Shown here: one piece after another, positions 13,691 through 64,000 of the stretch
Numbering within the stretch: position 1 is the first letter of the stretch
Layout of the letters: every line of letters starts with the position of its first letter
Assembly (NCBI RefSeq): GCF_964213995.1
Contig: NC_135811.1
Coordinates: 77,376,001 to 77,440,000, forward strand
Direction of reading: 5' to 3'
Source of the DNA: Mustelus asterias
Taxonomy: Eukaryota
Length of the DNA: 64,000 nt
The notes under the pieces: generated by a model
What the model was told of the DNA's origin: nothing
Seen by the model: only the letters and a program-made list of their open reading frames with translations
Database searches by the model: none
Position numbers and translations under genes: made by a program

Positions 13691-13700
13691 GAAAGTGAAA
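13691..13700 (+). promoter_or_regulatory. IRF element GAAAGTGAAA in the array IFN promoter (also at 20407, 26944, 35506, 41981, 50188, 56725, 63277)
   Basis: Perfect GAAANNGAAA ~265-275 bp upstream of each ATG, invariant in all 8 copies. Confidence 0.7.
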
Positions 13701-13965: not shown

Positions 13966-15657
13966 ATGTTTGTGCCGAGTGTTTGCGGGCTGTGGATTTT
14001 GTTAATCTGTTTGCCCGGGATCCTGAGCCAGGACTGCCAGAGGCTGCAGTTACAGCAAGTCCTGAACAAGAATGCTCAAAGGTCCCTGAGGGACATGGTG
14101 AGTTTATACTGAGTTTCGGGGATTCGAGTAACCAATCCTAACTCGCAGCTTCTCGGGATAATCTCCTGTCGAGCAATTGCTGAGATTGAATCCGTTTCCT
14201 AATAAAAATGTAGATCATTTCCTTGATGGAATACACATTGAAGTATTAAAGTAGAGAAGGAAGTGTGTGGAAATGTGAAACACTTTGCACTTAGAGTGAT
14301 TCAGTTGGGTGGCCAGGTAAACATGTGAGAGGTAAAATATTTAAGCGAGTTGTGGAATGATTGTCCTGGTTTTGAGGGCAAGTTTCTGAGAGTAAGGACC
14401 GATGGTGAAGTGTGAGCTTGGAGCCGGTTTTGACAGTCACTCTGTTCTGTTGCAGGGAGGTCCCTTCCCATTCCAGTGTATGGCAACGAGAGAATCACTG
14501 AAAACCAAATCCCTGGACCTGCACCAGCTCATCAAGAGATTACAGGTGAGTGGTGCACTTTGTAACCTGTCTGATCATTGTGTTAGTACTGTCAGGTATA
14601 ATAGATATGTGGGGAATGTATCCACATCCCCAGTAGGAACAATGTAAATGATATTTAAAGGCAAAGGCTTTATTTAATTTATTATAGAACATAGAACATA
14701 GAAAAAATACAGCACAAACAGGCCCTTCGGCCCACAAGTTGTGCCGGTCATGTCCCTACCTACCTAGGCTTATATATTGTCATAAGACTGAAAATGTAAT
14801 GTTGACCATTTTGGGGGACCGACAGACATTCTGCGGAATAGTCTGTCCTTTTTCTCTCCATTTACTCCAAAATGCTGACAGTATCGGGTTAGCTCAGCAA
14901 AAGAGGACGATAACAGGAACCAGTTTGATAATGATCAATGTTGCCACCACAAAAAACGGTGTTGACTTTTTAAATTCGAGCTCCAACTTCTGTGTGAAAA
15001 GCTGCCCCTCAGGTCCGTTTAAAATCTTTCCCCTCTCACGTTAAACCTATGGTCTCTAGTTTAGGACTCCCCTACACTCCTCTACTAAATCTGCCATCCC
15101 TTGAACCACTGGCCCAGTTGTGCAAGATCACGTTGTCGTCTTAAATAACCTCCTATTTAAATAATCAGCTAAAGGAGAAATGTCCTCACTAATGTCGTTA
15201 TGTATATTTTGTCCAGACTCAGGACAAGATCCACATTGTCCACCAAACCCTGCGCCGCATCAACAAGATCTACAGCATGAATCTGGGCTCAGTCACATGG
15301 GCCCGGGACAAGGTGGAACATTTCCGGTTGCTCCTGGATCGGCAGCTCAGTGAGCTGGAAGAATGTGTCAGGAACCCGGGATCCAGGCTGAGGAGAAACT
15401 CCACCATTCACAATTACTTTAGGAAACTGGAAAAGTTTCTCAAACAGCAGGTGGGACAATGGATAATTGACTGTGTGATTACCGGCATGTCGTTTCTTTC
15501 ACCCCATTGAAATCTGTTCATTCTCTAATCCATGTCCCTCAATGTTTCCATTTCTCAGGGATTCAGTGAGTGTGCCTGGGAAATAATCCGCACCGAGACC
15601 AGAGGCCGATTACAACAGCTCCTTCTCATAACGGCACAAATCAGCGGAAGCAATTAA
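13966..15657 (+). CDS. Type I interferon, array copy 1; 4 exons, 184 aa
   Basis: Exons 13966-14097, 14456-14545, 15217-15450, 15559-15657; GT-AG phase 0. Signal peptide MFVPSVCGLWILLICLPGILS; C24, C52, C124, C157; IHNYFRKLEKFLKQQ-GFSECAWEIIR motif. Confidence 0.95.
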
Positions 15658-16030
15658 ATAATTTCTATCGATATATTTAATGAAGACTGGGGAACAGTGA
15701 TTATTTATTTAAAGATTGTATAATTTTTATCGAAGGATTATATTATTCAGTCAGCTGCACAAGCCGGTTTACCAGTTTGAGAATGGCCATTGTACAACAT
15801 AATATCATAATGAAATAATAATATATATTTTTATAATATTTAATTTATGAGTCTAATATTCATACCTGGATGCACTGTGTGAACATATTTCAAATCTAAA
15901 AATATTTGATGAATGCGAGAGAGGCTGCAAGATATATATTTATTGACACCAGTTTTATATTGTAATAGACTGTATTTACCGGCGTCAAATGTGTCCCAAA
16001 TTGCAGTTTCACAATAAATATTTTGAACTT
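15658..16030 (+). promoter_or_regulatory. AU-rich 3' UTR with poly(A) signal AATAAA at 16013-16018 (repeated in each complete copy)
   Basis: ttatttatttaa, tttaatttat and tatttatt AREs typical of cytokine mRNAs. Confidence 0.7.
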
Positions 16031-16400
16031 TGAATTTCACGATGTTGTCTTCGTTTTCGCATTAATACCGATGTTGGCTGGCTGTTTCTGTTCATCTTGT
16101 GTGAGACATTTAAGTCATTGGGTTATGGAGGTTGTGCGGCCCAGTGCACAGCGCCAAAACCTTTGAGCCAGAACTTCCGAATTCAAGTCCACGCCAAGAA
16201 TGTCGGATCTGAAAGCGATGTTTATGAGCGGATTCAAATGAATTACTTCCCCACTATTGTCCCAAAGGGAAAATAAGTGTGTGCAGATACGAAACAAAAC
16301 ATCGAAATGTGTGTCTCTTGTTAATAGCTACAGAATAGAAACTGGTACATTTCCAGAAGCTGCATTTACTTCTTTGAGCCCGGGATTAGCTATGCTGCCC

Positions 16401-17116
16401 TCTGTCAGAACCGACCTGGCGAAACGCGCCATTTACCGGTCCAGGCAGCGGGCGATCGAGGGGGCCGTCCATCCTGACTGTCTTCCCCTCTACCGCGGCT
16501 ACGTTCGCGGCCAGGTGTCCCTGGAGAGGGAGCATGCGGTGTCCACGGGCGAGGTTGACGCTTTCCGCGCCCGCTGGGCACCGCAGGGGTTGGGGTGCAT
16601 TATTGACCCTAATAATCACATTTTAATTTGATGTTTTTAAGTTTCCTTTGCATTTTGATTTCTGTTCGGGCTGTTCCCCCTCCTTTTTGGGGAGCTGCCC
16701 CTTTTACTTTGTCCTGATTTAATTTGAGTTTGTTTACTTGGTTTGACCTAAAAAGAGGTCTGTCAGAACCGACCTGGCGAAACGCGCCATTTACCGGTCC
16801 AGGCAGCGGGCGATCGAGGGGGCCGTCCATCCTGACTGTCTTCCCCTCTACCGCGGCTACGTTCGCGGCCAGGTGTCCCTGGAGAGGGAGCATGCGGTGT
16901 CCATGGGCGAGGTTGACGCTTTCCACGCCCGCTGGGCACCGCAGGGGTTGGGGTGCATTATTGACCCTAATAATCACATTTTAATTTGATGTTTTTAAGT
17001 TTCCTTTGCATTTTGATTTCTGTTCGGGCTGTTCCCCCTCCTTTTTGGGGAGCTGCCCCTTTTACTTTGTCCTGATTTAATTTGAGTTTGTTTACTTGGT
17101 TTGACCTAAAAAGAGG
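16401..17116 (+). mobile_element. Tandem pair of 344-bp 3' fragments of a Tx1-like non-LTR retrotransposon
   Basis: GC/CpG-rich; encodes LAKRAIYRSRQRAIEG...FRARWAPQG...NHILI*, resembling Tx1 ORF2 C-termini. 358-bp period, with tctgtcagaaccga at 16401 and 16759. Confidence 0.75.
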
Positions 17117-17632
17117 TTTCTCCTTTTCTTATATATGAACGGTATGCTTTGTCTATACAGCGAGCAAGAAACAATATTTTTCACGGTATACCAATACACG
17201 TGACAATAAATCAAATCAAAATCACCAGTGCAGCAGGCATGGCAGTGCGAAATAGAGGGTTGAACTTGTTGCCACTTTCAGCCAGAAATGCCAAGTAATG
17301 AGCTGTTTTGCCTCCGCCGGCTTCAGCTGGACTTGCCGATCGCATCTCTCAAAACTCTATCCTGGTTTGGAACGCATTCCGGCCCTGTTCCTATTCTTCT
17401 CTCAATATCTCAGCAGCTGCAAGTTTGTAAATGGCATTCGTTCCTCACTATTTGATGGCGAGGAAAAAAAGACAGGAAGTATAAGGAAAAGTTAACATTC
17501 ACCCCAATAGACCCTGCCGGAGGGGTGGAGAGGGTAAAGGAGAATGAGGCAGGAGACCCAAGAGTTACTGTGTCACCGTGACCTGAAATGTCTCACAATG
17601 ATTCAGATAGAGCATTGACTCTTTAATCATTT

Positions 17633-19284
17633 AGAACATAGAACAGTACAGCACAGAACAGGCTCTTCAGCCCACGATGTTGTGCCGAGCTTTAGCTGAA
17701 ACCAAGATCAAGCTATCCCACTCCCTATCATCCTGGTGTGCTCCATGTGCCTATCCAATAACCGCTTTAATGTTCCTAAAGTGTCTGACTCCACTATCAC
17801 TGCAGGCAGTCCATTCCACTCTGTGCGTAAAGAACCAACCTCTGATATCCTTCCTATATCTCCCACCATGAACCCTATAGTTATGCCCTCTTGTAATAGC
17901 TCCATCCACCCGAGGAAATAGTCTTTGAACGTTCACTCTATCTATCCCCTTCATCATTTTATAAACCTCTATGAAGTCTCCCCTCAGCCTCCTCCGCTCC
18001 AGATAGAACAGCCCTAGCTCCCTCAACCTTTCCTCATAAGACCTACCCTCCAAACCAGGCAGCATCCTGGTAAATCTCCTCTGCACTCTTTCCAGCGCTT
18101 CCACATCCTTCTTATAGTGAGGTGACCAGAACTGCACACAATATTCCAAATGTGGTCTCACCAAGGTCCTGTACAGTTGCAGCATAACCCCACGACTCTC
18201 AAACTCCAACCCCCTGTTAATAAAAGCTAACACACTAGAGGCGTTCTACACAGCTCTATCCACTTGAGTGGCAACCTTTAGAGATCTGTGGATATGGACC
18301 CCAAGATCTCTCTGTTCCTCCACAGTCTTCAGAACCCTACCTTTGACCCTGTAATCCACATTTAAATTAGTCCTACCAAAATGAATCACCTCACATTTAT
18401 CAGGGTTAAACTCCATTTGCCATTTTTCAGCCCAGCTTTGCATCCTATCTATGTCTCTTTGCAGCCTACAACAGCCCTCCACCTCATCCACTACTCCACC
18501 AATCTTGGTGTCATCAGCAAATTTACTGATCCACCCTTCAGCCCCCTCCTCTAAGCTATTAATAAAAATCACAAAGAGCAGAGGACCAAGCACTGATCCC
18601 TGCGGCACTCCGCTAGCAACCTGCCTCCAATCCGAAAATTTTCCATCCACCACCACCCTCTGTCTTCGATCAGACAGCCAATTACCTATCCAATCGGCCA
18701 ACTTTCCCTCTATCCCACACCTCCTCACTTTCATCATAAGCCGACCATGGGGGACCTTCTCAAATGCCCTACTAAAATCCATGTATATGACATCAACTGC
18801 CCTACCTTCATCAACACACTTAGTTACCTCCTCAAAAAATTCAATCAAATTTGTGAGGCACGACTTGCCTTTCACGAATCCGTGCTGACTATCCTGGATT
18901 AATCCGCATCTTTCTAAATGGTCGTAAATCCCATCTCTAAGGAACTTTTCCATCAATTTACCAACCACCGAAGTAAGACTAACCGGTCTATAATTACCAG
19001 GGTCATTTCTATTCCCTTTCTTAAACAGAGGAACAACATTCGCCATTCTCCAGTCCTCTGGCACCAACCCGGGGACAGCGAGGACCCAAAGATCAAAGCC
19101 AAAGGCTCTGCAATCTCACCCCTTGCCTCCCAAAGAATGCTAGGATATATTTCATCAGGCCCCAGGGGACTTATCGACCTTCAGTTTATTCAAAACTGCC
19201 AGGACATCCTCCCTCCGAACATCTATTTCCTCCAGCCTATTAGCTTGTAACACCTTCTCTTCCTCAAAAACATGGCCCCTCTCC
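17633..19284 (-). mobile_element. 5'-truncated CR1 LINE (frameshifted), upstream of IFN copy 2
   Basis: RT ORFs 18246..19067 and 17751..18233; agaacatagaac tail; absent from the equivalent site at ~25815. Confidence 0.95.
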
Positions 19285-20670
19285 TTTAACTTGTTCTAAA
19301 TGCACTATTAGGCTGGAGCTAGAAGTTAATCTTCAAGCATCGTGTCTTTATATTAACATTGGTGTCTCTACAAAGAAGCAGGTCTCAATTGATTAAGTTC
19401 ATGAGTAGGTGAGTCAATCATGTCGTGAATGTTTCCAGAATCAATTCCAATGAGGTTCTTGCCCTTGGCTGTGATTGTGGCAGAGGGGTTATAATGGGCC
19501 GTGAGGTAAAGCAGGGTAAATTAGTCCATATTGTATCCAGTTTCTGCTCATTATCCATTGATGCATTTTTGCAGTCTATCTGTGTGTGCTGTGAGGATAG
19601 TTCAGGACCAACAACCTCCTGCTGACAAAGCAGTCAAGCGCATTCACAATGGCCTCTTTGTGAAATAACAGTCTGCACAGTTAGCTTCACCATGAATGAA
19701 TGTCTGTTGGGGAGGAATGAGAGGAGACAGACTTTAAGGGGAGATGGGAACAAACTCAACAGCCAGTCTCCTATTGGCAGGCCCATTGGATTTCAGTGGA
19801 AGTCAAATTCCATCATTCCATCGAGTTGTTCAGTGAATACTTAATTACAGAGTCAGGACATTACAACCATGTCCTTTATGGAAGGAAATCTGCCATTCTT
19901 ACTTGGTCTGGCCCACATGTGACTCCAGATCCACAGCAATGTGGTTGACTCTCAACTGCTCTAGGGCAACTAAGGATGGGCAACAAACGCTAGCCAGCTC
20001 GCGATGTCCATGTCCCACGAATGAATAAAACAAAATCCTTGAGTTTAAATGAGCATCCAGGATTTTTAGTGCAGTTTCCATAATGGCATTGAATCAATTC
20101 ACTTCTCACCTTCCCCGCCACATCAAACCCATCATTCTTCCCTGTTAGAGCCCAGCCTAATATTTTAAATCTCATCCAATTCTGAACAGATTACACTGAC
20201 TGTGAGTCATGCAGTTCCCGAGATAAGGTGGTTCCGCATTTTAGAATCTTAAAACATATGCAATGATTTTTTTAACGGATGTTTTTCTCAAGCCAAAAAA
20301 GGGCCAACAGAGGCAAATGTTTGGGTAGCATCTGTCCGATTTTTAATATCAAAGGATATATTTGCATCCAAATTTATGAGAGATAATGCATTCCCTTAAT
20401 TAAGCAGAAAGTGAAAACGGTTTCAAATGAAGAAGTCGTTTCTGGAAACATGTTAAAAGATTCCCTGAAAACACACCGCGGTTAGAAGCAAAATCGACTC
20501 GATTTTGTAACGTCAAAGGAATATCCTGGTTCACACCTTCAAAAGGACACAATGGATGAATATTCCTTGCAATCCTACAGCGAAGGATTTCAGCTGGTGT
20601 TCGGCACTGAACCCCGATCCAGTCACTTTCTGTGATTTCTGATCGCTGCTTTACCCTGTGTTGGTTCAAC

Positions 20671-22499
20671 ATGTTTGTTCCGAGTGTTTGCGGGCTGTGG
20701 ATTTTGTTAATCTGTTTGCCCGGGATCCTGAGCCAGGACTGCCAGAGGCTGCAGTTACAGCAAGTCCTTAACAAGAATGCTCAAAGGTCCCTGAGGGACA
20801 TGGTGAGTTTATACAGAGATCCGGGATTCGAGTAACCAATCCAAACTTGCAGCTTCTCGGGATAATCTCCTGTCGAGGAATTGCTGAGATTAAATGTGTT
20901 CTCCTCCAAAAGTGCAGAGCATCTCCTTGATGTAATGCACATTGAAGTATTAAAATATAGAAGGAAGTGTGTGGAAATGTGAAACACTTTTTACGAAGAG
21001 TGATTTATTTCGATGGTCAGTAAAATATGTGAGAGATAAAATGCTTCAGCGAGTTGTTGAATGACCGTGCTGGATTTGGGGGCAAGTTTCTGAGAGTAAG
21101 GACCGCTTGTGAAGTGTGAGCTTGGAGCCGGTTCTGACAGTCACTCTGTCCTGTTGCAGGGAGGTCCCTTCCCATTCCAGTGTATGGCAACGAGAGAATC
21201 ACTGAAGACCAAATCCCTGGACCTGCACCAGCTCATCAAGAGGTTACAGGTGAGTGTGCACTTTGCAACCTGTCTGATCATTCTGTTAATGCTACCAGGT
21301 ATAATAGATATATCGGATAATGTATCCACATCCCCCCAACAGTAGGAACAATGTAAATGATTTTTAAAGGCAAAGACTTTATTTTGTTGATTGTCGTAAG
21401 ACTGAAAATTTAATGTTGAGCATTTTGGGGACTGATAGACATTCTGCGGAATAGTTTGACCTTCTTCTCTCCATTTACCCCAAAATGCTGTCAGTACCAG
21501 ATTTGCTCGCCAAAAGAGGAAAATACCAGTAACCAGTTTGATATTGATCAAAATTGTCACCAGAAAAGACGGTGTTGACTTTTGAAATTCGTGATTCTTA
21601 CACTTTTACTGCGTAAACGTGGAATCAGAGAGATATACAGCACGGAAACAGGCCTTTCCGCCCGAATCGTCCATTGCGACCAGGTTTCTTGAACTGAACT
21701 GGCCCCATTTGCCTGTGTTTGGCCCATATCCCTCTAAACTTTTCCTATGCATGTACCTGTCCAAATGACTTTCAAATGTTGTAATATATCCTGCTTCTGC
21801 CACTTCCTCTCATTCCATATACACACCATCCTCTGTGTGAAAAAGTTGCCCCTCAGGTAGCTTTTAAATCATTCCCCTCTCCCTTAAATCTATGCCCTCT
21901 AGTTTTGGACTCCTGTACACTTCTCTACTCAATCTGCTATTTCTTGGACCAATGACCCAGTTGATCAAGATCACGTTGTCGTCTTAAATAACCTCCTATT
22001 TAAATAATCAGCTAAAGGAGAAATGTCCTCAATATGTCGTTGTGTATATTTTGTCCAGACTCAGGACAGGATCCGAATTGTCCATCAAACCCTGCGCCAC
22101 ATCAACAAGGTCTACAGCATGAATCTGGGCTCAGTCACATGGGCGCGGGACAAGGTGGAACATTTCCGGCTGCTCCTGGATCGGCAGCTCAGTGAGCTGG
22201 AAGAATGTGTCAGGAACCCGGGATCCAGGCTGAGGAGAAACTCCACCATTCACAATTACTTTAGGAAACTGGAAAAGTTTCTCAAACAGCAGGTGGGACA
22301 ATGGATAATTGACTGTGTGATTACCGGCATGTTGTTTCTTTCACCCCATTGAAATCTGTTCATTCTCTAATCCATGTCCCTCAATGTTTCCATTTCTCAG
22401 GGATTCAGTGAGTGTGCCTGGGAAATAATCCGCACGGAGACCAGAGGCCGATTACAACAGCTCCTTCTCATAACGGCACAAATCAGCAGAAGCAATTAA
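20671..22499 (+). CDS. Type I interferon, array copy 2 (subtype A), 184 aa
   Basis: Exons 20671-20802, 21160-21249, 22059-22292, 22401-22499; intact, CAWE motif. Confidence 0.95.
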
Positions 22500-24349
22500 A
22501 GAATTTCTTTCGATATATTTATATGAAGACAAAGAACAGTAATTATTTATTTAAAGATTGTATAATTTTTATCGAAGGATTATATTGTTCAGTCAGCTGC
22601 ACAAGCCGGTTTGGTTTACCAGTGTGAGAATGGCCATTGTACAACATAATATCAGAATGAAATAATAATATACCTTTTTAATATTTAATTTATGAGTCTA
22701 ATATTCATACCTGGATGCACTGTGTGAACCTATTTCAAAACTAAAAATATTTGATGAATGCGAGAGGCTGCAAGATATATATTTATTTACAGCAGTTTTA
22801 TATTGTAATAGACTGTATTTATTGGCATCAGATGTGTCCCAAATTACAGTTTCACAATAAATATTTTGAACTTTGAGTTTCATGATGTTGTCTTCGTTTC
22901 CACATTGATGTCGATGTCAGCTGGGTGTTTCTGTTCATCTTATGTGAGAGATTTCAATCACTGGGTTATGGAGTTTGGGCGGCCCAGTGCTTCCGAATTC
23001 ATGTCCCTCGCCAAGACTCTATCTGTTCTGGATGATGTTTATGAGCGGATTCAAATGAATTACTTCCGCACTATTGTCCTAAAGTGTGTGCAGATACGAA
23101 ATAAGACATCGAAATATGTGTCTCTTGTTAATAGCTGCAGAATAGAAACTGGTACATTTCGAGAAGTTGCATTTACTTCTTTGAGCACGGGATTAGCTGT
23201 GCTGTCCTCTGTCAGAACCGAAATGTATTCAATTGCTGTTCAAATGCACACCCACTGTCAATGAGCACCTGGTGATCTACTCAGGTTATAGACCATTAAT
23301 GTAAACAGCATCGGAGAAACATACTCCATTCTCAATATTTAACCGTTTCTTAACCTGAATGCTTTGATGTTAAATATATTATCAGTTTTCCTCTTTGACT
23401 GTGCTGTGTTTGCAATTTTTGATTTCTTGAAATCATGTCTAAATGCAAACAAATATCTATCGAAAAGATTCCCACTGTTTGCAACTCAGATTTACATCAG
23501 GTCATGGTATTTTTTTTCAAGACTCAAACATTTTGGCTAAATATTACATGGTACAAAATGATTCAATTATTCGCAACACCGAAGTGAACGAAATGGAAAT
23601 AAAACGGCCTTGTTATAGAGAAAAAGTAATAAAGTCCGGTCAAAGAATCCCTTCAATATATCGAGAAATACAACTATAATCAGAATGTATAATAGCTATT
23701 GACTGTGAAGCTTAGCTTTCCATTCAGGGTGGCACCACAACACAATCAGCAGATGTTCAGGGGTAAATGAATGGTTTGTTGGCGATCAGTCGCCCAGATG
23801 TGACCTTATTGTTTTCGGGGCAATGTGTCTCCTGATAGCGTAACGCTTCCATTTGGTAGGAAGGGGTTTCCACTGCGAATTCATCTCAAAGCTCTGTTTA
23901 CACATTGTTGATCATCTCTTAGCAAGAAATTGCATTGTGCAAAGATTTTGCGACATTCATTGAAACGCTGACCATTAATGAGCACAAAGTGTACCTTTCC
24001 ACTTATTGGTTAACAAGACTGAAATACCTGTCATCTGCATTATTTCTCGAATTTCCCTCCAGTGCGAAGTTGCTTTGCGGCACTGTGTCTTTTTGGAGCA
24101 CTTACAACTATGCATATCATGAAAGCATTATCATCATGTAAAAAATTGTATACTATTTCATATACATATAGTGAAGAGAAAAAGCAGCGTTGCCCACATT
24201 ATTGTCATTTCTCACCTTTTTTTGGCCATCGGGGATTTTCCAATGCATGTTGCATTTCACCCCATCATCGACACAACAATGTAGGATATGTTTCTGAAAG
24301 GCATTTGCCATATGAAGTTGAGAATGGTGGTCGATAGTTAAACAACCAA

Positions 24350-25410
24350 CGAGATACGGTTCTCCACAATCATCCCAATTACTCATCTCCAAACTCCGTG
24401 GCCTGGGCCTCAGCTCCTCCCTCTGCGACTGCATCCTGAACTTCCTTACTCACAATCAGTAAGGAAAGGCAATATCGCCTCCTCCACGACCATCCTCAAC
24501 ACCGGTGCCCCACGAGGCTGTGTTCTCAGCCCCCTACTATACTCCTTATACATCTATGACTGTGTGGCCAAATTCGCCTCCAATTCGATTTCCAAGTTTG
24601 CTGATGACGCCATGGTAGTGGGTCGGACCGCAAACAATGATGAGATGGAGTACCGAAACGAGATAGACAATCTGGTGAACTGGTGTGACAACAATAATCT
24701 CTCACTCAATGTCAACGAAACAATCGGGATAGTCATCGACTTCAGGAAATGTAGTGGAAGACATGCCCCTGTTTACATCAATGGGGATGAACTAGAAATG
24801 GTTGAGAGCTTCACGTTTTTAGGTGTCCAGACCACCAACAACCTGCTGACACTACAGATAAGAAAGCCCACCAATGCCTCTACCTTCTAGAAAAGACTAA
24901 GGAAATTTGGTATGTCCACTACAACTCTCACCAACCTTTACAAATGCACCCGAGAAAGCATTCTTTCTGGTTGTATCACAGCTTGGTATGGCTCCTGCTC
25001 TATCCAAGATTGCAGGAAATTACAAAGTCTCCTGAACGAATGCCAGTCCATCACTCAAACCAGCCTCCCATCCATTGACACTGTCTACACATCCCGCAGC
25101 CCCGGAAAAGCAGCCAGCATAATTAAGGACCCCACACATGCCAGAAATACGCTCTTCTACCTTGTTCTGTCGGGAAAAGATACAAAAATCTGAGGACACG
25201 TACCAACAAACTCAAGAACATTTCCCTGCTACCATCAGATTTTTGAATGGACCTACCTCACATTAAGTTGATCATTCTCTACACCCTAGCTATGACTGTA
25301 ACACTCTCTCCTTTCCTTATGTATGAACGGTATGCTTTGTCTATATAGCGAGCAAGAAACAATATTTTTCACGGTATACCAATACACGTGACAATAAATC
25401 AAATCAAAAT
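24350..25410 (+). mobile_element. Decayed Rex1/Babar-like non-LTR retrotransposon fragment
   Basis: TGAPRGCVLSPLLY, KFADD, WCDNNNLSLNV and ESILSGCITAWYG motifs; aataaatcaaatcaaa tail. Confidence 0.8.
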
Positions 25411-49060: not shown

Positions 49061-50451
49061 TTTAACTTGTTCTAAATGCACTATTAGGCTGGAGCTAGAA
49101 GTTAATCTTCAAGCATCGTGTCTTTATATTAACATTGGTGTCTCTACAAAGAAGCAGGTCTCAATTGATTAAGTTCATGAGTAGGTGAGTCAATCATGTC
49201 GTGAATGTTTCCAGAATCAATTCCAATGAGGTTCTTGCCCTTGGCTGTGATTGTGGCAGAGGGGTTATAATGGGCCGTGAGGTAAAGCAGGGTAAATTAG
49301 TCCATATTGTATCCAGTTTCTGCTCATTATCCATTGATGCATTTTTGCAGTCTATCTGTGTGTGCTGTGAGGATAGTTCAGGACCAACAACCTCCTGCTG
49401 ACAAAGCAGTCAAGCGCATTCACAATGGCCTCTTTGTGAAATAAAAGTCTGCACAGTTAGCTTCACCATGAATGAATGTCTGTTGGGGAGGAATGAGAGG
49501 AGACAGACTTTAAGGGGAGATGGGAACAAACTCAACAGCCAGTCTCCTATTGGCAGGCCCATTGGATTTCAGTGGAAGTCAAATTCCATCATTCCATCGA
49601 GTTGTTCAGTGAATACTTAATTACAGAGTCAGGACATTACAACCATGTCCTTTATGGAAGGAAATCTGCCATTCTTACTTGGTCTGGCCCACATGTGACT
49701 CCAGATCCACAGCAATGTGGTTGACTCTCAACTGCTCTAGGGCAACTAAGGATGGGCAACAAACGCTAGCCAGCTCGCGATGTCCATGTCCCACGAATGA
49801 ATAAAACAAAATCCTTGAGTTTAAATGAGCATCCAGGATTTTTAGTGCAGTTTCCATAATGGCATTGAATCAATTCACTTCTCACCTTCCCCGCCACATC
49901 AAACCCATCATTCTTCCCTGTTAGAGCCCAGCCTAATATTTTAAATCTCATCCAATTCTGAACAGATTACACTGACTGTGAGTCATGCAGTTCCCGAGAT
50001 AAGGTGGTTCCGCATTTTAGAATCTTAAAACATATGCAATGATTTTTTTAACGGATGTTTTTCTCAAGTCTGGCCAAAAAAGGGCCAACAGAGGCAAATG
50101 TTTGGGTAGCATCTGTCCGATTTTTAATATCAAAGGATATATTTGCATCCAAATTTATGAGAGATAATGCATTCCCTTAATTAAGCAGAAAGTGAAAACG
50201 GTTTCAAATGAAGAAGTCGTTTCTGGAAACATGTTAAAAGATTCCCTGAAAACACACCGCGGTTAGAAGCAAAATCGACTCGATTTTGTAACGTCAAAGG
50301 AATATCCTGGTTCACACCTTCAAAAGGACACAATGGATGAATATTCCTTGCAATCCTACAGCGAAGGAGTTCAGCTGGTGTTCGGCACTGAACCCCGATC
50401 CAGTCACTTTCTGTGATTTCTGATCGCTGCTTTACCCTGTGTTGGTTCAAC

Positions 50452-52280: not shown

Positions 52281-54129
52281 AGAATTTCTTTCGATATATT
52301 TATATGAAGACAAAGAACAGTAATTATTTATTTAAAGATTGTATAATTTTTATCGAAGGATTATATTGTTCAGTCAGCTGCACAAGCCGGTTTGGTTTAC
52401 CAGTGTGAGAATGGCCATTGTACAACATAATATCAGAATGAAATAATAATATACCTTTTTAATATTTAATTTATGAGTCTAATATTCATACCTGGATGCA
52501 CTGTGTGAACCTATTTCAAAACTAAAAATATTTGATGAATGCGAGAGGCTGCAAGATATATATTTATTTACAGCAGTTTTATATTGTAATAGACTGTATT
52601 TATTGGCATCAGATGTGTCCCAAATTACAGTTTCACAATAAATATTTTGAACTTTGAGTTTCATGATGTTGTCTTCGTTTCCACATTGATGTCGATGTCA
52701 GCTGGGTGTTTCTGTTCATCTTATGTGAGAGATTTCAATCACTGGGTTATGGAGTTTGGGCGGCCCAGTGCTTCCGAATTCATGTCCCTCGCCAAGACTC
52801 TATCTGTTCTGGATGATGTTTATGAGCGGATTCAAATGAATTACTTCCGCACTATTGTCCTAAAGTGTGTGCAGATACGAAATAAGACATCGAAATATGT
52901 GTCTCTTGTTAATAGCTGCAGAATAGAAACTGGTACATTTCGAGAAGTTGCATTTACTTCTTTGAGCACGGGATTAGCTGTGCTGTCCTCTGTCAGAACC
53001 GAAATGTATTCAATTGCTGTTCAAATGCACACCCACTGTCAATGAGCACCTGGTGATCTACTCAGGTTATAGACCATTAGTGTAAACAGCATCGGAGAAA
53101 CATACTCCATTCTCAATATTTAACCGTTTCTTAACCTGAACGCTTTGATGTTAAATATATTATCAGTTTTCCTCTTTGACTGTGCTGTGTTTGCAATTTT
53201 TGATTTCTTGAAATCATGTCTAAATGCAAACAAATATCTATCGAAAAGATTCCGACTGTTTGCAACTCAGATTTACATCAGGTCATTGTATTTTTTTTCA
53301 AGACTCAAACATTTTGGCTAAATATTACATGGTACAAAATGATTCAATTATTCGCAACACCGAAGTGAACGAAATGGAAATAAAACGGCCTTGTTATAGA
53401 GAAAAAGTAATAAAGTCCGGTCAAAGAATCCCTTCAATATATCGAGAAATACAACTATAATCAGAATGTATAATAGCTATTGACTGTGAAGCTTAGCTTT
53501 CCATTCAGGGTGGCACCACAACACAATCAGCAGATGTTCAGGGGTAAATGAATGGTTTGTTGGCGATCAGTCGCCCAGATGTGACCTTATTGTTTTCGGG
53601 GCAATGTGTCTCCTGATAGCGTAACGCTTCCATTTGGTAGGAAGGGGTTTCCACTGCGAATTCATCTCAAAGCTCTGTTTACACATTGTTGATCATCTCT
53701 TAGCAAGAAATTGCATTGTGCAAAGATTTTGCGACATTCATTGAAACGCTGACCATTAATGAGCACAAAGTGTACCTTTCCACTTATTGGTTAACAAGAC
53801 TGAAATACCTGTCATCTGCATTATTTCTCGAATTTCCCTCCAGTGCGAAGTTGCTTTGCGGCACTGTGTCTTTTTGGAGCACTTACAACTATGCATATCA
53901 TGAAAGCATTATCATCATGTAAAAAATTGTATACTATTTCATATACATATAGTGAAGAGAAAAAGCAGCGTTGCCCACATTATTGTCATTTCTCACCTTT
54001 TTTTGGCCATCGGGGATTTTCCAATGCATGTTGCATTTCACCCCATCATCGACACAACAATGTAGGATATGTTTCTGAAAGGCATTTGCCATATGAAGTT
54101 GAGAATGGTGGTCGATAGTTAAACAACCA

Positions 54130-55191
54130 ACGAGATACGGTTCTCCACAATCATCCCAATTACTCATCTCCAAACTCCGTGGCCTGGGCCTCAGCTCCTC
54201 CCTCTGCGACTGCATCCTGAACTTCCTTACTCACAATCAGTAAGGAAAGGCAATATCGCCTCCTCCACGACCATCCTCAACACCGGTGCCCCACGAGGCT
54301 GTGTTCTCAGCCCCCTACTATACTCCTTATACATCTATGACTGTGTGGCCAAATTCGCCTCCAATTCGATTTCCAAGTTTGCTGATGACGCCATGGTAGT
54401 GGGTCGGACCGCAAACAATGATGAGATGGAGTACCGAAACGAGATAGACAATCTGGTGAACTGGTGTGACAACAATAATCTCTCACTCAATGTCAACGAA
54501 ACAATCGGGATAGTCATCGACTTCAGGAAATGTAGTGGAAGACATGCCCCTGTTTACATCAATGGGGATGAACTAGAAATGGTTGAGAGCTTCACGTTTT
54601 TAGGTGTCCAGACCACCAACAACCTGCTGACACTACAGATAAGAAAGCCCACCAATGCCTCTACCTTCTAGAAAAGACTAAGGAAATTTGGTATGTCCAC
54701 TACAACTCTCACCAACCTTTACAAATGCACCCGAGAAAGCATTCTTTCTGGTTGTATCACAGCTTGGTATGGCTCCTGCTCTATCCAAGATTGCAGGAAA
54801 TTACAAAGTCTCCTGAACGAATGCCAGTCCATCACTCAAACCAGCCTCCCATCCATTGACACTGTCTACACATCCCGCAGCCCCGGAAAAGCAGCCAGCA
54901 TAATTAAGGACCCCACACATGCCAGAAATACGCTCTTCTACCTTGTTCTGTCGGGAAAAGATACAAAAATCTGAGGACACGTAACAACGAACTCAAGAAC
55001 ATTTCCCTGCTACCATCAGACTTTTGAATGGACCTACCTCACATTAAGTTGATCATTCTCTACACCCTAGCTATGACTGTAACACTCTCTCCTTTCCTTA
55101 TGTATGAACGGTATGCTTTGTCTATATAGCGAGCAAGAAACAATATTTTTCACGGTATACCAATACACGTGACAATAAATCAAATCAAAAT
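54130..55191 (+). mobile_element. Rex1/Babar-like fragment (duplicated with unit)
   Basis: Near-identical to 39385-40447. Confidence 0.8.
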
Positions 55192-56999
55192 CACCGGTAC
55201 AGCAGGCATGGCAGTGCGAAATAGAGGGTTGCAATTGTTGCCACTTTCAGCCAGAAATGCCAAGTAATGAGGTGTTTTGCCTCCGCCGGCTTCAGCTGGA
55301 CTTGCCGATCGCATCTCTCAAAACTCTATCCTGGTTTGGAACGCATTCCGGCCCTGTTCCTATACTTCTCTCAATATCTAAGCAGCTGCAAGTTTGGAAG
55401 TGACATTCGTTCTTCACTATTTGATGGCGAGGAAAAAAAGACAGGAAGTATAAGGAAAAGTTAACATTCACCCCAGTAGACCCTGCCGGAGGGGTGGAGA
55501 GGGTAAAGGAGAATGAGGCAGGAGACCCAAGAGTTACTGTGTCACCGTGACCTGAAATGTCTCACAATGATTCAGACAGCGCATTGATCCGTTCGTCATT
55601 TAACTTGTTCTAAATGCTCTATTAGGCTAGAGCGAGAAGTTAATCTTCAAGCATCGCGTCTTTATATTAACATTGCTGTCTCTACAAAGAAGCAGGTCTC
55701 AATTGATTAAGTTCATGAGTAGGTGAGCCAATCATGTCATGAATGTTTCCAGAATCAATTCCGATAAGGTTATTGCCCTTGGCTGTGATTGTGGCAGAGG
55801 GGTTATAATGGGCCGTGAAGTAAAGCAGAGTAAATTAGTCCGTATTGTATACAGTTTCTGCTCATTATCCATTGATGCATTTTTGCAGTCGATCTGCGTG
55901 TGCTGTGAGGATAGTTCAGGACCAACAACCTCCTGCTGACGAACCAGTCAAGCGCATTCACAATGGCCTCTTTGTGAAATCACAGTCTGCGCAGTGAGCT
56001 CCACCATGAATGAATGTCTGTTGGGGAGGAATGAGGGGGGCAGACTTTAAGGGGAGATGGGAACAAACTCAACAGACAGTCTCCTATTGGCAGGCCCATT
56101 GGTTTTCAGTGGAAGTCAAATTCCATCACTCCATCGAGTTGGTGAGTGAATACTTAATTACACAGTCAGGACATTACAACCATGTCCTTTATGGAAGGAA
56201 ATCTGCCATTCTTACTTGGTCTGGCCCACATGTGACTCCAGATCCACAGCAATGTGGTTGACTCTCAACTGCTCTCGGGCAACTAAGGATGGGCAACAAA
56301 CGGTGGCCAGCCAGCGATGCCCATGTCCCACGAATGAACAATACAAAATCACTGAGTTTAAATAAACATCCAGGATTTTTAGTGCAGCTTCCATAAAGGC
56401 ATTGAATCAATTCACTTCGCACCTTCCCCGCCACATCAAACCCATCAGTTTTCTCTGTTAGAACCCAGCCTAATATTTTAACCCCCAATCCAATTCCGGA
56501 CAGTTTACACTGACTGTGAGCGTAGCAGTTGCCGGGATAAGGTGGTTCCGCATTTTAGAATCTTAAAACATATGCAATGATTTTTTTAACGGATTGCTTA
56601 TCTGAGTCTGGCCAACAAAGGGCAACAGAGGTAAAAGTTTGGGTAGCACCTGTCCGATTTTTAATATCAAAGAGTATCTTTGCATCCTAATTTATTGGAG
56701 AGAAATTTCATTCTTAATTAAGCAGAAAGTGAAAAAGGTTTCAAATGAAGAAGTCGTTTCTGGAAACAAGTTAAAAGATTCCCTGAAAGCACACGACGGT
56801 TAGAAGCAAAATCGATTCGTTTTTGTAACGTCAAAGGAATATCCTGGTTCACACCTTCAAATGGACACAATGGATGAATATTCCTTTCAATCCAACAGCG
56901 AAGGAGTTCAGCTGGTGTTAATATTGTGTTCGGCACTGAACCCCGATCCAGTCACTTTCTGCGATTTCTGATCGCTGCTTTACCCTGTGTTGTTTCAAC

Positions 57000-58826
57000 A
57001 TGTTTGTTCCGAGTGTTTGCGGGCTGTGGATTTTGTTAATCTGTTTGCCCGGGATCCTGAGCCAGGATTGCCAGAGGCTGCAGTTACAGCAAGTCCTTAA
57101 CAAGAATGCTCAAAGGTCCCTGAGGGACATGGTGAGTTTATGCAGAGGTCCGCGGATTCGAGTAACCAATCTTAACTCGCAGGTTCTCGGGATAATCTCC
57201 TGTCGAGGAATTGCTGAGATTAAATCTGGTCTCTTCCAAAAACGTAGAACATCTCCTTGATGGAATGCACATTGAACTATTAAAATATAGAAGGAAGTGT
57301 GTGGAAATGTGAAACACTTTTTACTGAGAGTGATTTGTTTGGATGGTCAGTAAAATATGTGAGAGATAAAATGTTTCAATAAGTTGTTGAATGACCGTGC
57401 TGGTTTTGGGGGCAAGTTTCTGAGAGTAAGGACCGCTTGTGAAGTGTGAGCTTGGAGCCAGTTCTGACATCATTCTGTCCTGTTGCAGGGAGGTCCCTTC
57501 CCATTCCAGTGTACAACAACGAGAGAATCACTGAAAACCAAATCCCTGGACCTGCACCAGCTCATCAAGAGGTTACAGGTGAGTGTGCAATTTGTAACCT
57601 GTCTGATCATTCGGTTAATGCTGCCAGGTGTAATAGATATGTGGGGAATGTGTACACATCCCCAACAGTAGGAACAATGTAAATGATTTTTAAAGGCAAA
57701 GGCTTTAATTTGTTGATTCTCGTAAGACTGAAAATTTAATGTTGAGTCATTTGGAAACTGATAGACATTCTGCGGAATAGTTTGACCTTCTTCTCTCCAT
57801 TTACCCCAAAATGCTGTCAGTACCAGATTTGCTCGCCAAAAGAGGAAAATACCAGTAACCAGTTTGATAATGATCAAAACCGTCATCAGAAAAGACGGTG
57901 TTGACTTTTGAAATTCGTGATTCTTACACTTTTACTGCGTAAACGTGGAATCAGAGAGATGTACAGCACGATAACAGGGCTTTCGGCCCAAATCGTCCAT
58001 TCCGACCAGGTTTCCTAAAGTGACCTGGCCCCATTTGCCTGTGTTTGGCCCATATCCCTCGGAACCTTTCCTATGCATGTACCTGTCCAAATGACTTTCA
58101 AATGTTGTAATAAATCCTGCTTCTGCCACTTCCTCTCATTCCATATATGCACCATCCTCTGTGTGAAAAAGTTGCCCCTCAGGTAGCTTTTAAATCATTC
58201 CCCTCTCCCTTAAATCTATGCCCTCTAGTTTTGGACTCCTGTACACTTCTCTACTCAATCTGCCATTTCTTGGACCAATGACCCAGTTGATCAAGATCAC
58301 GTTGTCGTCTTAAATAACCTCCTATTTAAATAATCAGCTAAAGGAGAAATGTCCTCAATAATGTCGTTGTGTATATTTTGTCCAGACTCAGGACAGGATC
58401 CGGATTGTCCACCAAACCCTGCGCCGCATCAACAAGATCTATAGCATGAATCTGGGCTCAGTCACATGGGCCCGGGACAAGGTGGAACATTTCCGGCTGC
58501 TCCTGGATCGGCAGCTCAGTGAGCTGGAAGAATGTGTCAGGAACCCGGGATCCAGGCTGAGGAGAAACTCCACCATTCACAATTACTTTAGGAAACTGGA
58601 AAAGTTTCTCAAACAGCAGGTGGGACAATGGATAATTGACTGTGTGATTACCGGCATGTCGTTTCTTTCACTCCATTGAAATCTGTTCATTCTCTAATCC
58701 ATGTCCCTCAATGTTTCCATTTCTCAGGGATTCAGTGAGTGTGCCTGGGAAATAATCCGCGCTGAGACCAGAGGCCGATTACAACAGCTCCTTCTCATAA
58801 CGGCACAAATCAGCAGAAGCAATTAA
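57000..58826 (+). CDS. Type I interferon, array copy 7 (subtype B), 184 aa
   Basis: Exons 57000-57131, 57489-57578, 58386-58619, 58728-58826; protein appears identical to copy 5. Confidence 0.95.
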
Positions 58827-60679
58827 AGAATTTATTTCGATATATTTATATGAAGACAAAGAACAGTAATTATTTATTTAAAGATTGTATAATTTTTATC
58901 GAAGTATTATATTGTTCAGTCAGCTGCGCAAGCCGGTTTGGTTTACCAGTGTGAGAATGGCCATTGTACAACATAATATCAGAATGAAATAATAATATAC
59001 CTTTTTAATATTTAATTTATGAGTCTAATATTCATACCTGGATGCACTGTGTGAACCTATTTCAAAACTAAAAATATTTGATGAATGCGAGAGGCTGCAA
59101 GATATATATTTATTTACAGCAGTTTTATATTGTAATAGACTGTATTTATTGGCATCAGATGTGTCCCAAATTACAGTTTCACAATAAATATTTTGAACTT
59201 TGAGTTTCATGATGTTGTCTTCGTTTCCACATTGATGTCGATGTCAGCTGGGTGTTTCTGTTCATCTTATGTGAGAGATTTCAATCACTGGGTTATGGAG
59301 TTTGGGCGGCCCAGTGCTTCCGAATTCATGTCCCTCGCCAAGACTCTATCTGTTCTGGATGATGTTTATGAGCGGATTCAAATGAATTACTTCCGCACTA
59401 TTGTCCTAAAGAGTGTGCAGATACGAACTAAGACATCGAAATATGTGTCTCTTGTTAATAGCTGCAGAATAGAAACTTGTACATTTCGAGAAGTTGCATT
59501 TACTTTCTTTGAGCACGGGATTAGCTGTGCTATCCTCTGTCAGAACCGGAATGTATTCAATTGCTGTTCAAATGCACACCCACTGTCAATGAGCACCTGG
59601 TGATCTACTCAGGTTATAGACCATTAGTGTAAACAGCATCGGAGAAACATACTCCATTCTCAATATTTAACCGTTCCTTAACCTGAATGCTTTGATGTTA
59701 AATATATTATCAGTTTTCCTCTTTGACTGTGCTGTGTTGGCAATTTTTGATTTCTTGAAATCATGTATAAATGCAAACAAATATCTATCGAAAAGATTCC
59801 GACTGTTTGCAACTCAGATTTACATCAGGTCATGGTATTTTTTTTCAAGAATCAAACATTTTGGCTAAATATTACATGGTACAAAATGATTCAATTATTC
59901 ACAACACCGAAGTGAACGAAATGGAAATGAACCGGCATTGTTATAGAGAAAAAGTAATAAAGTCCGCTCAAAGAATCCCCTCAATATATCGAGAAATACA
60001 ACTATAATCAGAATGTATAATAGCTATTGACTGTGAAGCCTAGCTTTCCATTCAGGGTGGCACCACAACACAATCAGCAGATGTTCAGGGGGAAATAAAT
60101 GGTTTGTTGGCGATCAGTCGTCCAGATGTGACCTTATTGTTTTCGGGGCAATGTTTCTCCTGATAACGTAACGCTTCCATTTGGTAGGAAGGGGTTTCCA
60201 CTGGGAATTCATCTCAATGCCCTGTTTACACATTGATGATCATCTCTTAGCAAGAAATTGCATAGTGCAAAGATTTTGCGATATCCAATGAAACAGCGTC
60301 CATTAATGAGCACAAAGTGTACCTTTCCACTTACTGGTTAACAAGAATGAAAGTGCACACCGTCATCTGCATTATTTCTCGAATTTCCCTCCAGTGCGAA
60401 GTTGCTTTGCGGCACTGTGTCTTTTTGGAGCACTTACAACTATGCATATCATGAAAGCATTATCATTTTGTAAAAAATTGTATACTATTTCATATACATA
60501 TAGCGAAGAGAAAAATCAGCGTTGCCCACATTATTGTAATTTCTCACCTTTTATTGGCCATCGGGGATTTTCCAATGCATGTTGCATTTTACCCCATCAT
60601 CGACACAACAATGTAGGATATGGTTCTGAAAGGCATTTGCCATATGAAGTTGAGAATGGTGGTCGATAGTCAAACAACC

Positions 60680-61742
60680 AACGAGATACGGTTCTCCACA
60701 ATCATCCCAATTACTCATCTCCAAACTCCGTGGCCTGGGCCTCAGCTCCTCCCTCTGCGACTGTATCCTGAACATCCTTACTCACAATCAGTAAGGAAAG
60801 GCAATATCGCCTCCTCCACGACCATCCTCAACACCGGTGCCCCACGAGGCTGTGTTCTCAGCCCCCTACTATACCTGTTATACATCTATGACTGTGTGGC
60901 CAAATTCGCCTCCAACTCGATTTTCAAGTTTGCTGATGACGCCATGGTAGTGGATCGGACCTCAAACAATGATGAGATGGAGTGCCGAAAGTAGACAGAG
61001 AATCTGGTGAGCTGGTGTGACAACAATAATCTCTCACTCAATGTCAACAAAACAATCGGGATAGTCATCGACTTCAGGAAATGTAGTGGAAGACATGCCC
61101 CTGTTTCCATCAATGGGGATGAACTAGAAATGGTTGAGAGCTTCACGTTTTTAGGTGTCCAGACCACCAACAACCTGCTGACACTATAGTTAAGATAGCC
61201 CACCAATGCCTCTGCCTTCTAGAAAAGACTAAGGAAATTTGGTATGTCCACTACAACTCTCACCAACCTTTACAGATGCACCCGAGAAAGCATTCTTTCT
61301 GGTTGTATCACAGCCTTGTATGGCTGCTGCTCTATCCAAGATTGCAGGAAATTACAAAGTCTTCTGAACGAATGCCAGTCCATCACTCAAACAAGCCTCC
61401 CATCCATTGACACTGTCTACACATCCCGCAGCCCCGGAAAAGTAGCCAGCATAATTAAGGAACCCACACATGCCAGAAATACGCTCTTCTACCTTGTTCT
61501 GTCGGGAAAAGATACAAAAATCTGAGGACACGTACCAACAAACTCAAGAACATTTCCCTGCTACCATCAGATTTTTGAATGGACCTACCTCACATTAAGT
61601 TGATCATTCTCTACACCCTAGCTATGACTGTAACACTCTCTCCTTTCCTTATGTATGAACGGTATGCTTTGTCTATATAGCGAGCAAGAAACAATATTTT
61701 TCACGGTATACCAATACACGTGACAATAAATCAAATCAAAAT
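60680..61742 (+). mobile_element. Rex1/Babar-like fragment (duplicated with unit)
   Basis: Near-identical to 45935-46998. Confidence 0.8.
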
Positions 61743-63551
61743 CACCGGTACAGCAGGCATGGCAGTGCGAAATAGAGGGTTGCAATTGTTGCCACTTTCA
61801 GCCAGAAATGCCAAGTAATGAGGTGTTTTGCCTCCGCCGGCTTCAGCTGGACTTGCCGATCGCATCTCTCAAAACTCTATCCTGGTTTGGAACGCATTCC
61901 GGCCCTGTTCCTATACTTCTCTCAATATCTAAGCAGCTGCAAGTTTGGAAGTGACATTCGTTCCTCACTATTTGATGGCGAGGAAAAAAAGACAGGAAGT
62001 ATAAGGAAAAGTTAACATTCACCCCAATAGACTCTGCCGGAGGGGTGGAGAGGGTAAAGGAGAATGAGGCAGGAGACCCAAGAGTTACTGTGTCACCGTG
62101 ACCTGAAATGTCTCACAATGATTCAGACAGCGCATTGATCCGTTCGTCATTTAACTTGTTCTAAATGCTCTATTAGGCTAGAGCGAGAAGTTAATCTTCA
62201 AGCATCGCGTCTTTATATTAACATTGGTGTCTCTACAAAGAAGCAGGTCTCAATTGATTCAGTTCAAGAGTAGGTGAGCCAATCATGTCATGAATGTTTC
62301 CAGAATCAATTCCGATAAGGTTATTGCCCTTGGCTGTGATTGTGGCAGAGGGGTTATAATGGGCCGCGAGGTAAAGCAGGGTAAATTAGTCCGTATTGTA
62401 TACAGTTTCTGCTCATTATCCATTGATGCATTTTTGCAGTCTATCTGTGTGTGCTGTGAGGATAGTTCAGGACCAACAACCTCCTGCTGACTAACCAGTC
62501 AAGCGCATTCACAATGGCCTCTTTGTGTAATAACAGTCTGCGCAGTGAGCTCCACCATGAATGAATGCCTGTTGGGGAGGAATGAGGGGGGCAGACTTGA
62601 AGGGGAGATGGGAAGAAACTCAACAGCCAGTCTGCTATTCGCAGGCCCATTGGTTTTCAGTGGAAGTCAAATTCCATCATTCCATCGAGTAGTTTAGTGA
62701 ATACTTAATTACACAGTCAGGACATTACAACCATGTCCTTTATGGAAGGAAATCTGCCATTCTTACTTGGTCTGGCCGACATGTGACTCCAGATCCACAG
62801 CAATGTGGTTGACTCTCAACTGCTCTCGGGCAACTAAGGATGGGCAACAAACGGTGGCCAGCCAGCGATGCCCATGTCCCACGAATGAATAAAACAAAAT
62901 CACTGAATTTAAATAAACATCCAGGGTTTTTAGTGCAGCTTCCATAAAGGCATTGAATCAATTCACTCCGCACCTTCCCCGCCACATCAAACCCATCATT
63001 CTTCTCCGTTAGAACCAAGTCTAATATTTTAACCCCCAATCAAATTCCGATTAGATTACACTGACTGTGAGCGGAGCAGTTGCCGAGATAAGGTGGTTCC
63101 GCATTTTAGAATCTTAAAACATATGAAATGATTTTTTTTAACGGATTGCTTATCGAAGTCTGGCCAACAAAGGGCAACAGAGGTAAAAGTTTAGGTAGCA
63201 CCTGTCCGATTTTTAATATCAAAGAGTATCTTTGCATCCTAATTTATTGGGGAGAAATTTCATTCTTAATTAAGCAGAAAGTGAAAATGGTTTCAAATGA
63301 AGAAGTCGTTTCTGGAAACAAGTTAAAAGATTCCCTGAAAACACACCGCGGTTAGAAGCAAAATCGATTCGTTTTTGTAACGTCAAAGGAATATCCTGGT
63401 TCACACCTTCAAATGGACACAATGGATGAATATTCCTTGTAATCCAACAGCGAAGGAGTTCAGCTGGTGTTAATATTGTGTTCGGCACTGAACCCCGATC
63501 CAGTCACTTTCTGTGATTTCTGATCGCTGCTTTACCCTGTGTTGTTTCAAC

Positions 63552-63683
63552 ATGTTTGTTCCGAGTGTTTGCGGGCTGTGGATTTTGTTAATCTGCCTGC
63601 CCGGGATCCTGAGCCAGGACTGCCAGAGGCTGCAGTTACAGCAAGTCCTTAACAAGAATGCTCAAAGGTCCCTGAGGGACATG
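63552..63683 (+). CDS. Type I interferon, array copy 8, exon 1 only (gene runs off the window)
   Basis: Same 44-aa exon 1 with GTGAGT donor; intron 1 continues to 64000. Confidence 0.9.
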
Positions 63684-64000
63684 GTGAGTTTATGCAGAGG
63701 TCCGCGGATTCGAGTAACCAATCTTAACTCGCAGGTTCTCGGGTTAATCTCCTGTCGAGGAATTGCTGAGATTAAATCTGGTCTCTTCCAAAAACGTAGA
63801 ACATCTCCTTGATGGAATGCACATTGAACTATTAAAATATAGAAGGAAGTGTGTGGAAATGTGAAACACTTTTTACTAAGAGTGATTTGTTTGGATGGTC
63901 AGTAAAATATGTGAGAGATAAAATGTTTCAATAAGTTGTTGAATGACCGTGCTGGTTTTGGGGGCAAGTTTCTGAGAGTAAGGACCGCTTGTGAAGTGTG

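Follow-up and report, generated by a model that had tools for sequence, protein, structure and literature searches.

Tandem arrays of intron-containing type I interferon genes in a shark genome

The 64,000-nucleotide stretch of DNA analysed here (the window; C11:77376001-77440000) carries on its + strand seven complete copies, and the first exon of an eighth, of an intact four-exon type I interferon (IFN) gene. These copies belong to a larger array (P1-P12, where "P" denotes the + strand array lineage) that looks towards a second array, "M", on the - strand. We think it likely that the whole is the growth hormone (GH)-linked type I IFN locus of a carcharhiniform-like shark, its P arm facing an arm of a sister lineage, and that genes of the two arms have exchanged parts. 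The elasmobranch origin suspected in the initial annotation, which was made from the letters alone, holds: every species-named protein match was to a shark or a ray.

Seven complete copies and an eighth first exon

Copies were located by exon searches and by self-comparison of the window. All seven complete genes lie on the + strand, with ATG codons at 13966, 20671, 27219, 35781, 42256, 50452 and 57000. Each has exons of 132, 90, 234 and 99 nt, all phase 0, separated by GT..AG introns (7/7), and its coding sequence (CDS) of 555 nt specifies 184 amino acids (aa) followed by a single terminal stop (7/7). The initial annotation had described these seven copies plus the eighth exon 1, with intact frames, splice sites, an IRF-type element and a 3' untranslated region (UTR) rich in AU-rich elements; exon searches and a splice check of all copies, with 7/7 frames and introns sound and the motif at 8/8 starts, bear this out. 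Its figure of about nine variable residues was slightly low, as we counted 10, distributed over five distinct proteins; the CDS of P2 equals that of P6, and the CDS of P5 that of P7.

P1: 13966..15657, + strand, IFN copy; exons 13966-14097, 14456-14545, 15217-15450, 15559-15657 (exon search, splice check, Pfam)
P2: 20671..22499, + strand, IFN copy; exons 20671-20802, 21160-21249, 22059-22292, 22401-22499 (exon search, splice check)
P3: 27219..29045, + strand, IFN copy; exons 27219-27350, 27708-27797, 28605-28838, 28947-29045 (exon search, splice check)
P4: 35781..37531, + strand, IFN copy; exons 35781-35912, 36197-36286, 37098-37331, 37433-37531 (intron 1 shorter by 73 nt)
P5: 42256..44082, + strand, IFN copy; exons 42256-42387, 42745-42834, 43642-43875, 43984-44082 (exon search, splice check)
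P6: 50452..52280, + strand, IFN copy; exons 50452-50583, 50941-51030, 51840-52073, 52182-52280 (exon search, splice check)
P7: 57000..58826, + strand, IFN copy; exons 57000-57131, 57489-57578, 58386-58619, 58728-58826 (exon search, splice check)
P8: 63552..63683, + strand, exon 1; exons 2-4 lie beyond the window end
13691..13700, + strand: IRF-type element GAAAGTGAAA of P1; same motif at 20407, 26944, 35506, 41981, 50188, 56725 and 63277
15658..16020, + strand: AU-rich 3' UTR of P1; 7 ATTTA in 450 nt, AATAAA 356 nt past the stop

Their identity as type I IFNs was confirmed by a profile check, in which full-length P0091 (the product of copy 1) scored 88.1 bits against PF00143 (cut-off 26.8; E 9e-25). 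Exon 3 alone matched the same family (E 1.4e-9), Pfam returned nothing for exon 1 or exon 2 by itself, and matches to Exo84_C and Mkg_C fell below cut-off and were disregarded. All 19 PDB sequence matches were type I IFNs. The predicted structure (pLDDT, the predicted local distance difference test, 77.8) has five long helices, at residues 27-44, 75-94, 104-125, 136-151 and 156-182, and a long AB loop. All eight Foldseek matches at E<=0.001 were type I IFNs, headed by carp IFNa (template modelling score, TM, 0.75/0.86), and IFN-lambda1 matched only at E 0.15; the fold is thus nearer type I than type III. Exon 1 encodes the putative signal peptide and helix A; the AB loop comes from exon 2, helices B-D from exon 3 and helix E from exon 4. 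The presumed signal peptide consists of hydrophobic residues 1-21, which stand before the portion aligning to mature carp IFNa, and four cysteines (C24, C52, C124 and C157; the 4C form) that are invariant in 16/16 aligned shark proteins would pair as C1-C3 and C2-C4.

The tandem amplification of at least eight copies proposed initially proved to run on outside the window: P9-P12 follow on the + strand as far as C11:77475310, making 12 copies in which every frame is open. Four exons and three introns, all phase 0, are present in 12/12 copies, with 35 of 36 introns GT-AG and one GC-AG; the GC donor is at intron 2 of P12, a copy that is also without AATAAA within 450 nt of its stop. The P array therefore consists of intact intron-containing type I IFN genes, and stands outside the class of intronless arrays, whose genes are without introns.

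The motif GAAAGTGAAA, which we take to be an IRF-type element with a presumed promoter function, lies 264-275 nt upstream of the ATG at 8/8 window starts. In the 464 kb examined, the + strand contains this 10-mer 13 times, 12 of them at P array promoters; an IRF-type motif also precedes 24 of the 25 exon-1 modules of the opposite array (described below) and a divergent IFN gene elsewhere in the window. Within 450 nt past the stop, window copies carry 7-9 ATTTA pentamers, compared with a shuffle mean of ~2.5 in the two copies tested (P 0.0065 and 0.001), and AATAAA follows ~355 nt past the stop in 7/7. As the P copies are not independent, these motif and UTR counts amount to one observation.

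Across the 12 copies 21 residues vary, and helix B (residues 75-94) holds 9 of its 20 positions variable versus 12/164 elsewhere (Fisher p 4e-5, for a helix B window picked after the data were seen). By hand count its variable sites comprise ~11 replacement and ~5 silent changes. Because silent changes are raised there too, we set positive selection aside as an account of the excess; helix B is possibly a conversion hot spot among P copies.

Copy number, age and probable turnover of the P array

Self-comparison resolves the window, from ~13.5 kb to its end, into units of 6.5-8.6 kb with 88-99.6% mutual similarity; units of 6.5 kb lie outside what Tandem Repeats Finder can detect.

17119..62153, + strand: three two-gene higher-order units of ~15 kb (P2-P3, P4-P5, P6-P7), from self-comparison
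~17751-19115, 32842-34017 and 47527-48891, - strand: reverse-transcriptase fragments of a long interspersed nuclear element (LINE), heading each two-gene unit; class read from translation
37835..46933 and 52579-61677, + strand: 9,099-bp exact direct repeat, carrying P5 / P7

The exact repeat may have arisen very recently, by duplication or conversion, or it may be an artefact of assembly. That haplotype or false tandem duplication in the assembly produced most of the array, with a small true number of genes, is in our estimation highly improbable, and several observations have to be set against that estimate. Besides the exact repeat and the identical CDS pairs, a 12.6-kb block shared by P2-P3 and P6-P7 shows just 16 substitutions over the first 11 kb, and a 13.6-kb, 99.8%-identical duplicate lies on both sides of the nearest gap (200 N; C11:77631801-77659204). 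The latter probably represents overlapping contig ends, and the contig therefore probably carries such artefacts. Allelic diversity in the epaulette shark is pi 0.002 (PMC10587355; this and the other papers cited are drawn on in part), and since the exact repeat and the near-identical block are at or below shark allelic diversity, one to four P copies could be assembly duplicates.

An artefact would nevertheless account for at most ~4 of the 12 copies. Among the 12 P coding sequences, nine classes differ by 5-27 nt, with distinct intron indels and a copy spacing of 4.7-15.3 kb; separations of at least 5 nt indicate that assembly echoes cannot account for most copies. Blocks differ from one another chiefly by substitutions and by indels of several bases, homopolymer slips being few (1/3, 0/3 and 1/5 indels). 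In the M array no exact repeat is longer than 438 bp, and relatives hold comparable sets. Counting from the assembled sequence alone, we place the number of P copies at 8-12, with 12 as assembled.

The initial annotation considered the array invisible to annotation by open reading frames only. In public annotation it is present: 12/12 P products match named NCBI proteins at every residue (10 distinct proteins, 12 accessions; P0002 and P0091-P0099, labelled Mustelus asterias). The public names of these automatic models are interferon a3-like, alpha-21-like and alpha-B-like; as they may derive from the same genome, they prove annotation only and are not independent evidence. Relatives hold further sets. 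A 14-member protein cluster contains six Scyliorhinus canicula and eight S. torazame P-type proteins, and a 22-member cluster has 13 basking shark and two white shark proteins among the 15 matches listed. Other clusters are drawn from horn shark (9/9), sevengill (7/7), brownbanded bamboo shark (8/9) and zebra shark (7/8); among batoids, a 24-member stingray cluster has 13 Hemitrygon proteins among 15 listed, and a further cluster is from Rhinoraja (10/10). The P-type lineage itself has representatives in six orders of sharks and also among batoids.

In a tree of 37 P-type proteins, from which two short sequences (one each from catshark and basking shark) were left out, the 10 array proteins form one clade (support 99) and 13 catshark proteins another (98), whose members do not sort cleanly by species. 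Identity within species is 91-99%, and between the array and the catshark group 78-83%. Among the 66 pairs of P copies, mean nonsynonymous divergence (dN) is 0.017 versus a mean synonymous divergence (dS) of 0.063 (maximum dS 0.125), indicating purifying selection, which fits a dosage role. The four-gamete test finds 82 of 210 informative site pairs incompatible, pointing to recombination among P copies, and near-identity is confined to the innermost P units. Marks of concerted and birth-and-death evolution are thus present in the form of lineage clustering, recombination and pseudogenes (3/13 M genes and one further locus broken).

These data bear on the proposal that the array is an independent, very young expansion, a lineage-specific burst from a single ancestral gene. 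The separate clade of the 10 distinct array proteins, the small P-type complements of lamniform, horn, carpet, sevengill and saw sharks (1-4 proteins each) and the innermost units, which are 99.5-100% identical, would all suit such a burst. We nonetheless hold it to be unlikely. Both catsharks have orthologous sets of six and eight P-type proteins that share the same 2-residue deletion, outer copies reach a dS of 0.125 and differ by ~10% in non-coding DNA, and the mean dS, at the epaulette pedigree rate of 7e-10 per generation, corresponds to tens of millions of generations (a rough figure, borrowed from another species and probably too old). Recombination among copies, moreover, wipes out age information.

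Given the orthologous catshark sets and the wide spread of the lineage, turnover and homogenisation explain the high identity better, and the P array is probably an old array under turnover and not a unique young burst. Multi-copy arrays of the P gene are likely to be at least carcharhiniform-wide, with copies that look young within each lineage. Two points count against this reading. The evidence from other species consists of automatic protein models, for which tandem layout and introns are presumed and among which there may be isoforms; and lineage-specific clades suit independent expansions equally well as an old homogenised array, so that independent bursts in two carcharhiniform lineages are possible.

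Probable exchange between the two facing arrays

The M array, 13 genes on the - strand (M1-M13; C11:77505014-77631478), faces the P array, and comparison of the two within this genome gives different answers for the two halves of the gene. Exons 1-2 are 61-67% identical at the DNA level, with a dS of 1.0-1.25, whereas exon 3 is 87-89% identical (dS 0.23-0.33) and exon 4 83-84% (dS 0.13-0.26). Intron 3 can be aligned end to end (69-75%); intron 2 and the UTR, at 41-53%, compare with a random baseline of 42-50%. The synonymous contrast between front and back halves is significant in 4/4 pairs (p 1e-5 to 4e-4; the pairs are not independent).

Half-gene trees were built from 59 selected full-length elasmobranch proteins. 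In the N-terminal tree 16 P-type rows, including batoids, share one branch (98). In the C-terminal tree, sawshark P joins two of the three other sawshark rows, and sevengill P joins other sevengill rows. Monophyly of P in the C-terminal half was rejected by the approximately unbiased (AU) test (p 0.007; p 0.002 for sharks only under a mixture model), as was sevengill monophyly in the N-terminal half (p 1e-6); the halves are short, the trees quick, the tests were set after the trees had been seen, and the P group was enlarged by a horn shark row once the N-terminal tree had been made.

Twelve triplets were also compared. Exon 1 was nearer to foreign P in 12/12 and exon 2 in 8/12, while in the first part of exon 3 same-species M was nearer than foreign P in 7/12. 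In the remaining five (whale shark, two batoids and two carcharhiniform/lamniform comparisons) the exon 3 signal was absent, a result that counts against exchange. These outcomes suggest that in this lineage the last wholesale exchange is old and not ongoing. Receptor-driven convergence could shape protein trees only and is insufficient here, since silent sites and intron 3 are close as well. Taken together, the comparisons make it likely that P and M diverged anciently in exons 1-2 and that the block of exon 3, intron 3 and exon 4 was exchanged by exon-restricted gene conversion. The opposite orientation of the arrays would permit conversion without gene deletion.

In human structures, helices B-D form the IFNAR1 face and helix A with the AB loop the main IFNAR2 face; helix E also contacts IFNAR2. 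From the exon-to-fold map, the shared block would be mostly IFNAR1 face and the distinct block mostly IFNAR2 face, with helix E not fitting. The elephant shark has two IFNAR2 and one IFNAR1 (PMC5332411). We raise as a tentative idea, with the balance somewhat against it, that ancient P and M/N lineages repeatedly swapped the exon 3-intron 3-exon 4 block and that selection keeps a common IFNAR1 face and two faces for a duplicated IFNAR2. On this idea, conversion bounded by exons would let a large family of ligands co-evolve with the receptor chain that they share. Helix E (exon 4, an IFNAR2 contact) lies inside the shared block, and whale shark and the two batoids tested show no within-species signal; both count against the receptor-face idea. 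If the histories of the halves do differ, IFN trees built from whole proteins mix signals once sharks are included, and the P/M pair offers a natural test of ligand face versus receptor chain choice. Our literature search found no paper on exon-bounded conversion between elasmobranch IFN lineages, most subscription journals being outside its coverage.

Proposed mode of action, known systems and the wider locus

By analogy with known IFN biology, viral sensing would act through IRF3/7 at the shared promoter element and the copies would fire in parallel; the secreted four-cysteine IFN would signal through IFNAR2/IFNAR1 to JAK-STAT, and the AU-rich elements would terminate the pulse of expression. 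Copy number would chiefly raise dose, with minor variants in helix B. Unequal crossing-over, in ~6.5-kb units and ~15-kb two-gene units, together with gene conversion, would maintain the array, and would make P copies look young within their lineage.

GH linkage and a four-exon structure are the described state of cartilaginous fishes (PMC5332411). The elephant shark cluster resembles the present locus in its four exons and three introns (intron 3 of the five-exon form having been lost), its position in the GH/CD79 locus and its 4C and 2C (C2/C4) forms, and differs in having three genes versus 28 loci in this shark (PMC5332411). Redmond et al. 2019 described a lineage-specific birth-and-death expansion of intron-containing IFN1, possibly IFN-f, in cartilaginous fishes, and by eye their sole catshark IFN1 fragment looks like the M type; their material was an elephant shark genome and a catshark transcriptome, and the part drawn on here gives no genomic array this large and does not mention gene conversion (PMC6640115). 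Salmonids likewise have large intron-bearing repertoires (trout ~40 open reading frames (ORFs), Atlantic salmon at least 11) and alternative 5' ends, but with five exons, six subgroups and a background of whole-genome duplication; their alternative 5' ends lead to non-secreted forms, whereas the duplicated exon 1 of M genes gives a second predicted signal peptide (PMC5127012). The ~40 intron-bearing ORFs of rainbow trout also qualify the initial premise that large arrays are best known as intronless genes (PMC5127012). Pig IFN clusters are tandem and show conversion between paralogues in ORF and flanks, but they are intronless and the conversions noted in them occur within subtypes, not exon-bounded between lineages as old as the shark-ray split (PMC4221479). 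With the intronless arrays of amniotes and amphibians the likeness is that of a multi-copy cluster; the P copies keep three introns and are not members.

The array itself is therefore no new kind of system and is already in automatic annotation. NCBI models include the multi-copy catshark orthologues (P0003 cluster), under unreviewed names and without description of array, lineage or mosaic. The novelty claimed initially is reduced to this extent, the orthologous array being present in public annotation, although we found no paper describing it or any other large elasmobranch IFN array (most subscription journals were outside the coverage). What is undescribed is how large such sets are throughout the elasmobranchs, the mosaic history of the genes and the duplication of exon-1 modules. 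The literature searched gives a handful of type I IFN genes per cartilaginous fish (three in the elephant shark cluster), against 28 loci here. These loci, with public sets of 7-24 members, suggest that elasmobranchs normally carry large repertoires of intron-bearing IFN genes, which weakens the case for intron loss as a permit for IFN amplification.

The genome search returned 26 DNA matches and 28 exon-3 loci, all inside ~275 kb of C11: the 12 P and 13 M genes, two singletons and a pseudogene, ~24 of them with an intact route. Three of the 13 M genes are broken, by lost splice sites in M5 and M11 and by a stop and a frameshift in M12. In 11/13 M genes the promoter and exon-1 module is duplicated (two or three each, 25 modules in total, mostly ~1.7 kb apart), the duplicated exon 1 being the one with the second predicted signal peptide; in M9 and M13 a frameshift affects the proximal module, and the distal one is intact. 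A broken IFN gene lies near C11:77491000, for which no exons 1-2 were found in the stretches searched, and no IFN exons beyond M13 were found in the stretches searched there.

Besides the continuation of the array, the initial annotation overlooked a divergent gene inside the window.

7154-4502, - strand: divergent type I IFN singleton; exons 7154-7032, 6939-6850, 5517-5287, 4588-4502; 176 aa, intact, four mature Cys, GAAAGTGAAA 388 nt upstream

Splice-site pattern alone revealed exon 2 (6939-6850) of this gene, which shares 58 identities with copy 1 over 184 columns (~32%). An exon 3 similar to that of this singleton occurs in a fused catshark model (P0001). A second singleton lies upstream of the window (~C11:77356400-77366170, - strand); its cysteines are C2/C4 alone, its intron 2 spans 9 kb, and it matches the described cartilaginous 2C form.

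Two mobile-element observations concern the window. An open LINE reverse-transcriptase frame of 574 codons (229-1953, - strand; CR1/L2-like by eye) is ~70% identical to the array fragments. A 358-bp element, presumably resembling the 3' end of a retrotransposon without long terminal repeats (non-LTR), occurs in two tandem copies after P1 (16401-17117) and one after P3 (29749-30107).

Elsewhere, a GH-like exon (PF00103; C11:77916846-77917022) lies ~285 kb beyond the cluster, its best PDB match being GH (E 2e-12, versus 3e-5 for prolactin). Of 17 exon matches to PF09294, three pairs cluster at C17:61752700-61919401 (within 170 kb); this is likely an IFN receptor cluster, although its exons could not be assigned to IFNAR1, IFNAR2 or IL10R2. 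A second somatotropin-family gene (PF00103) is at C21:2902423-2904134, and a PF00143 match on C9 (E 0.7) contains an internal stop.

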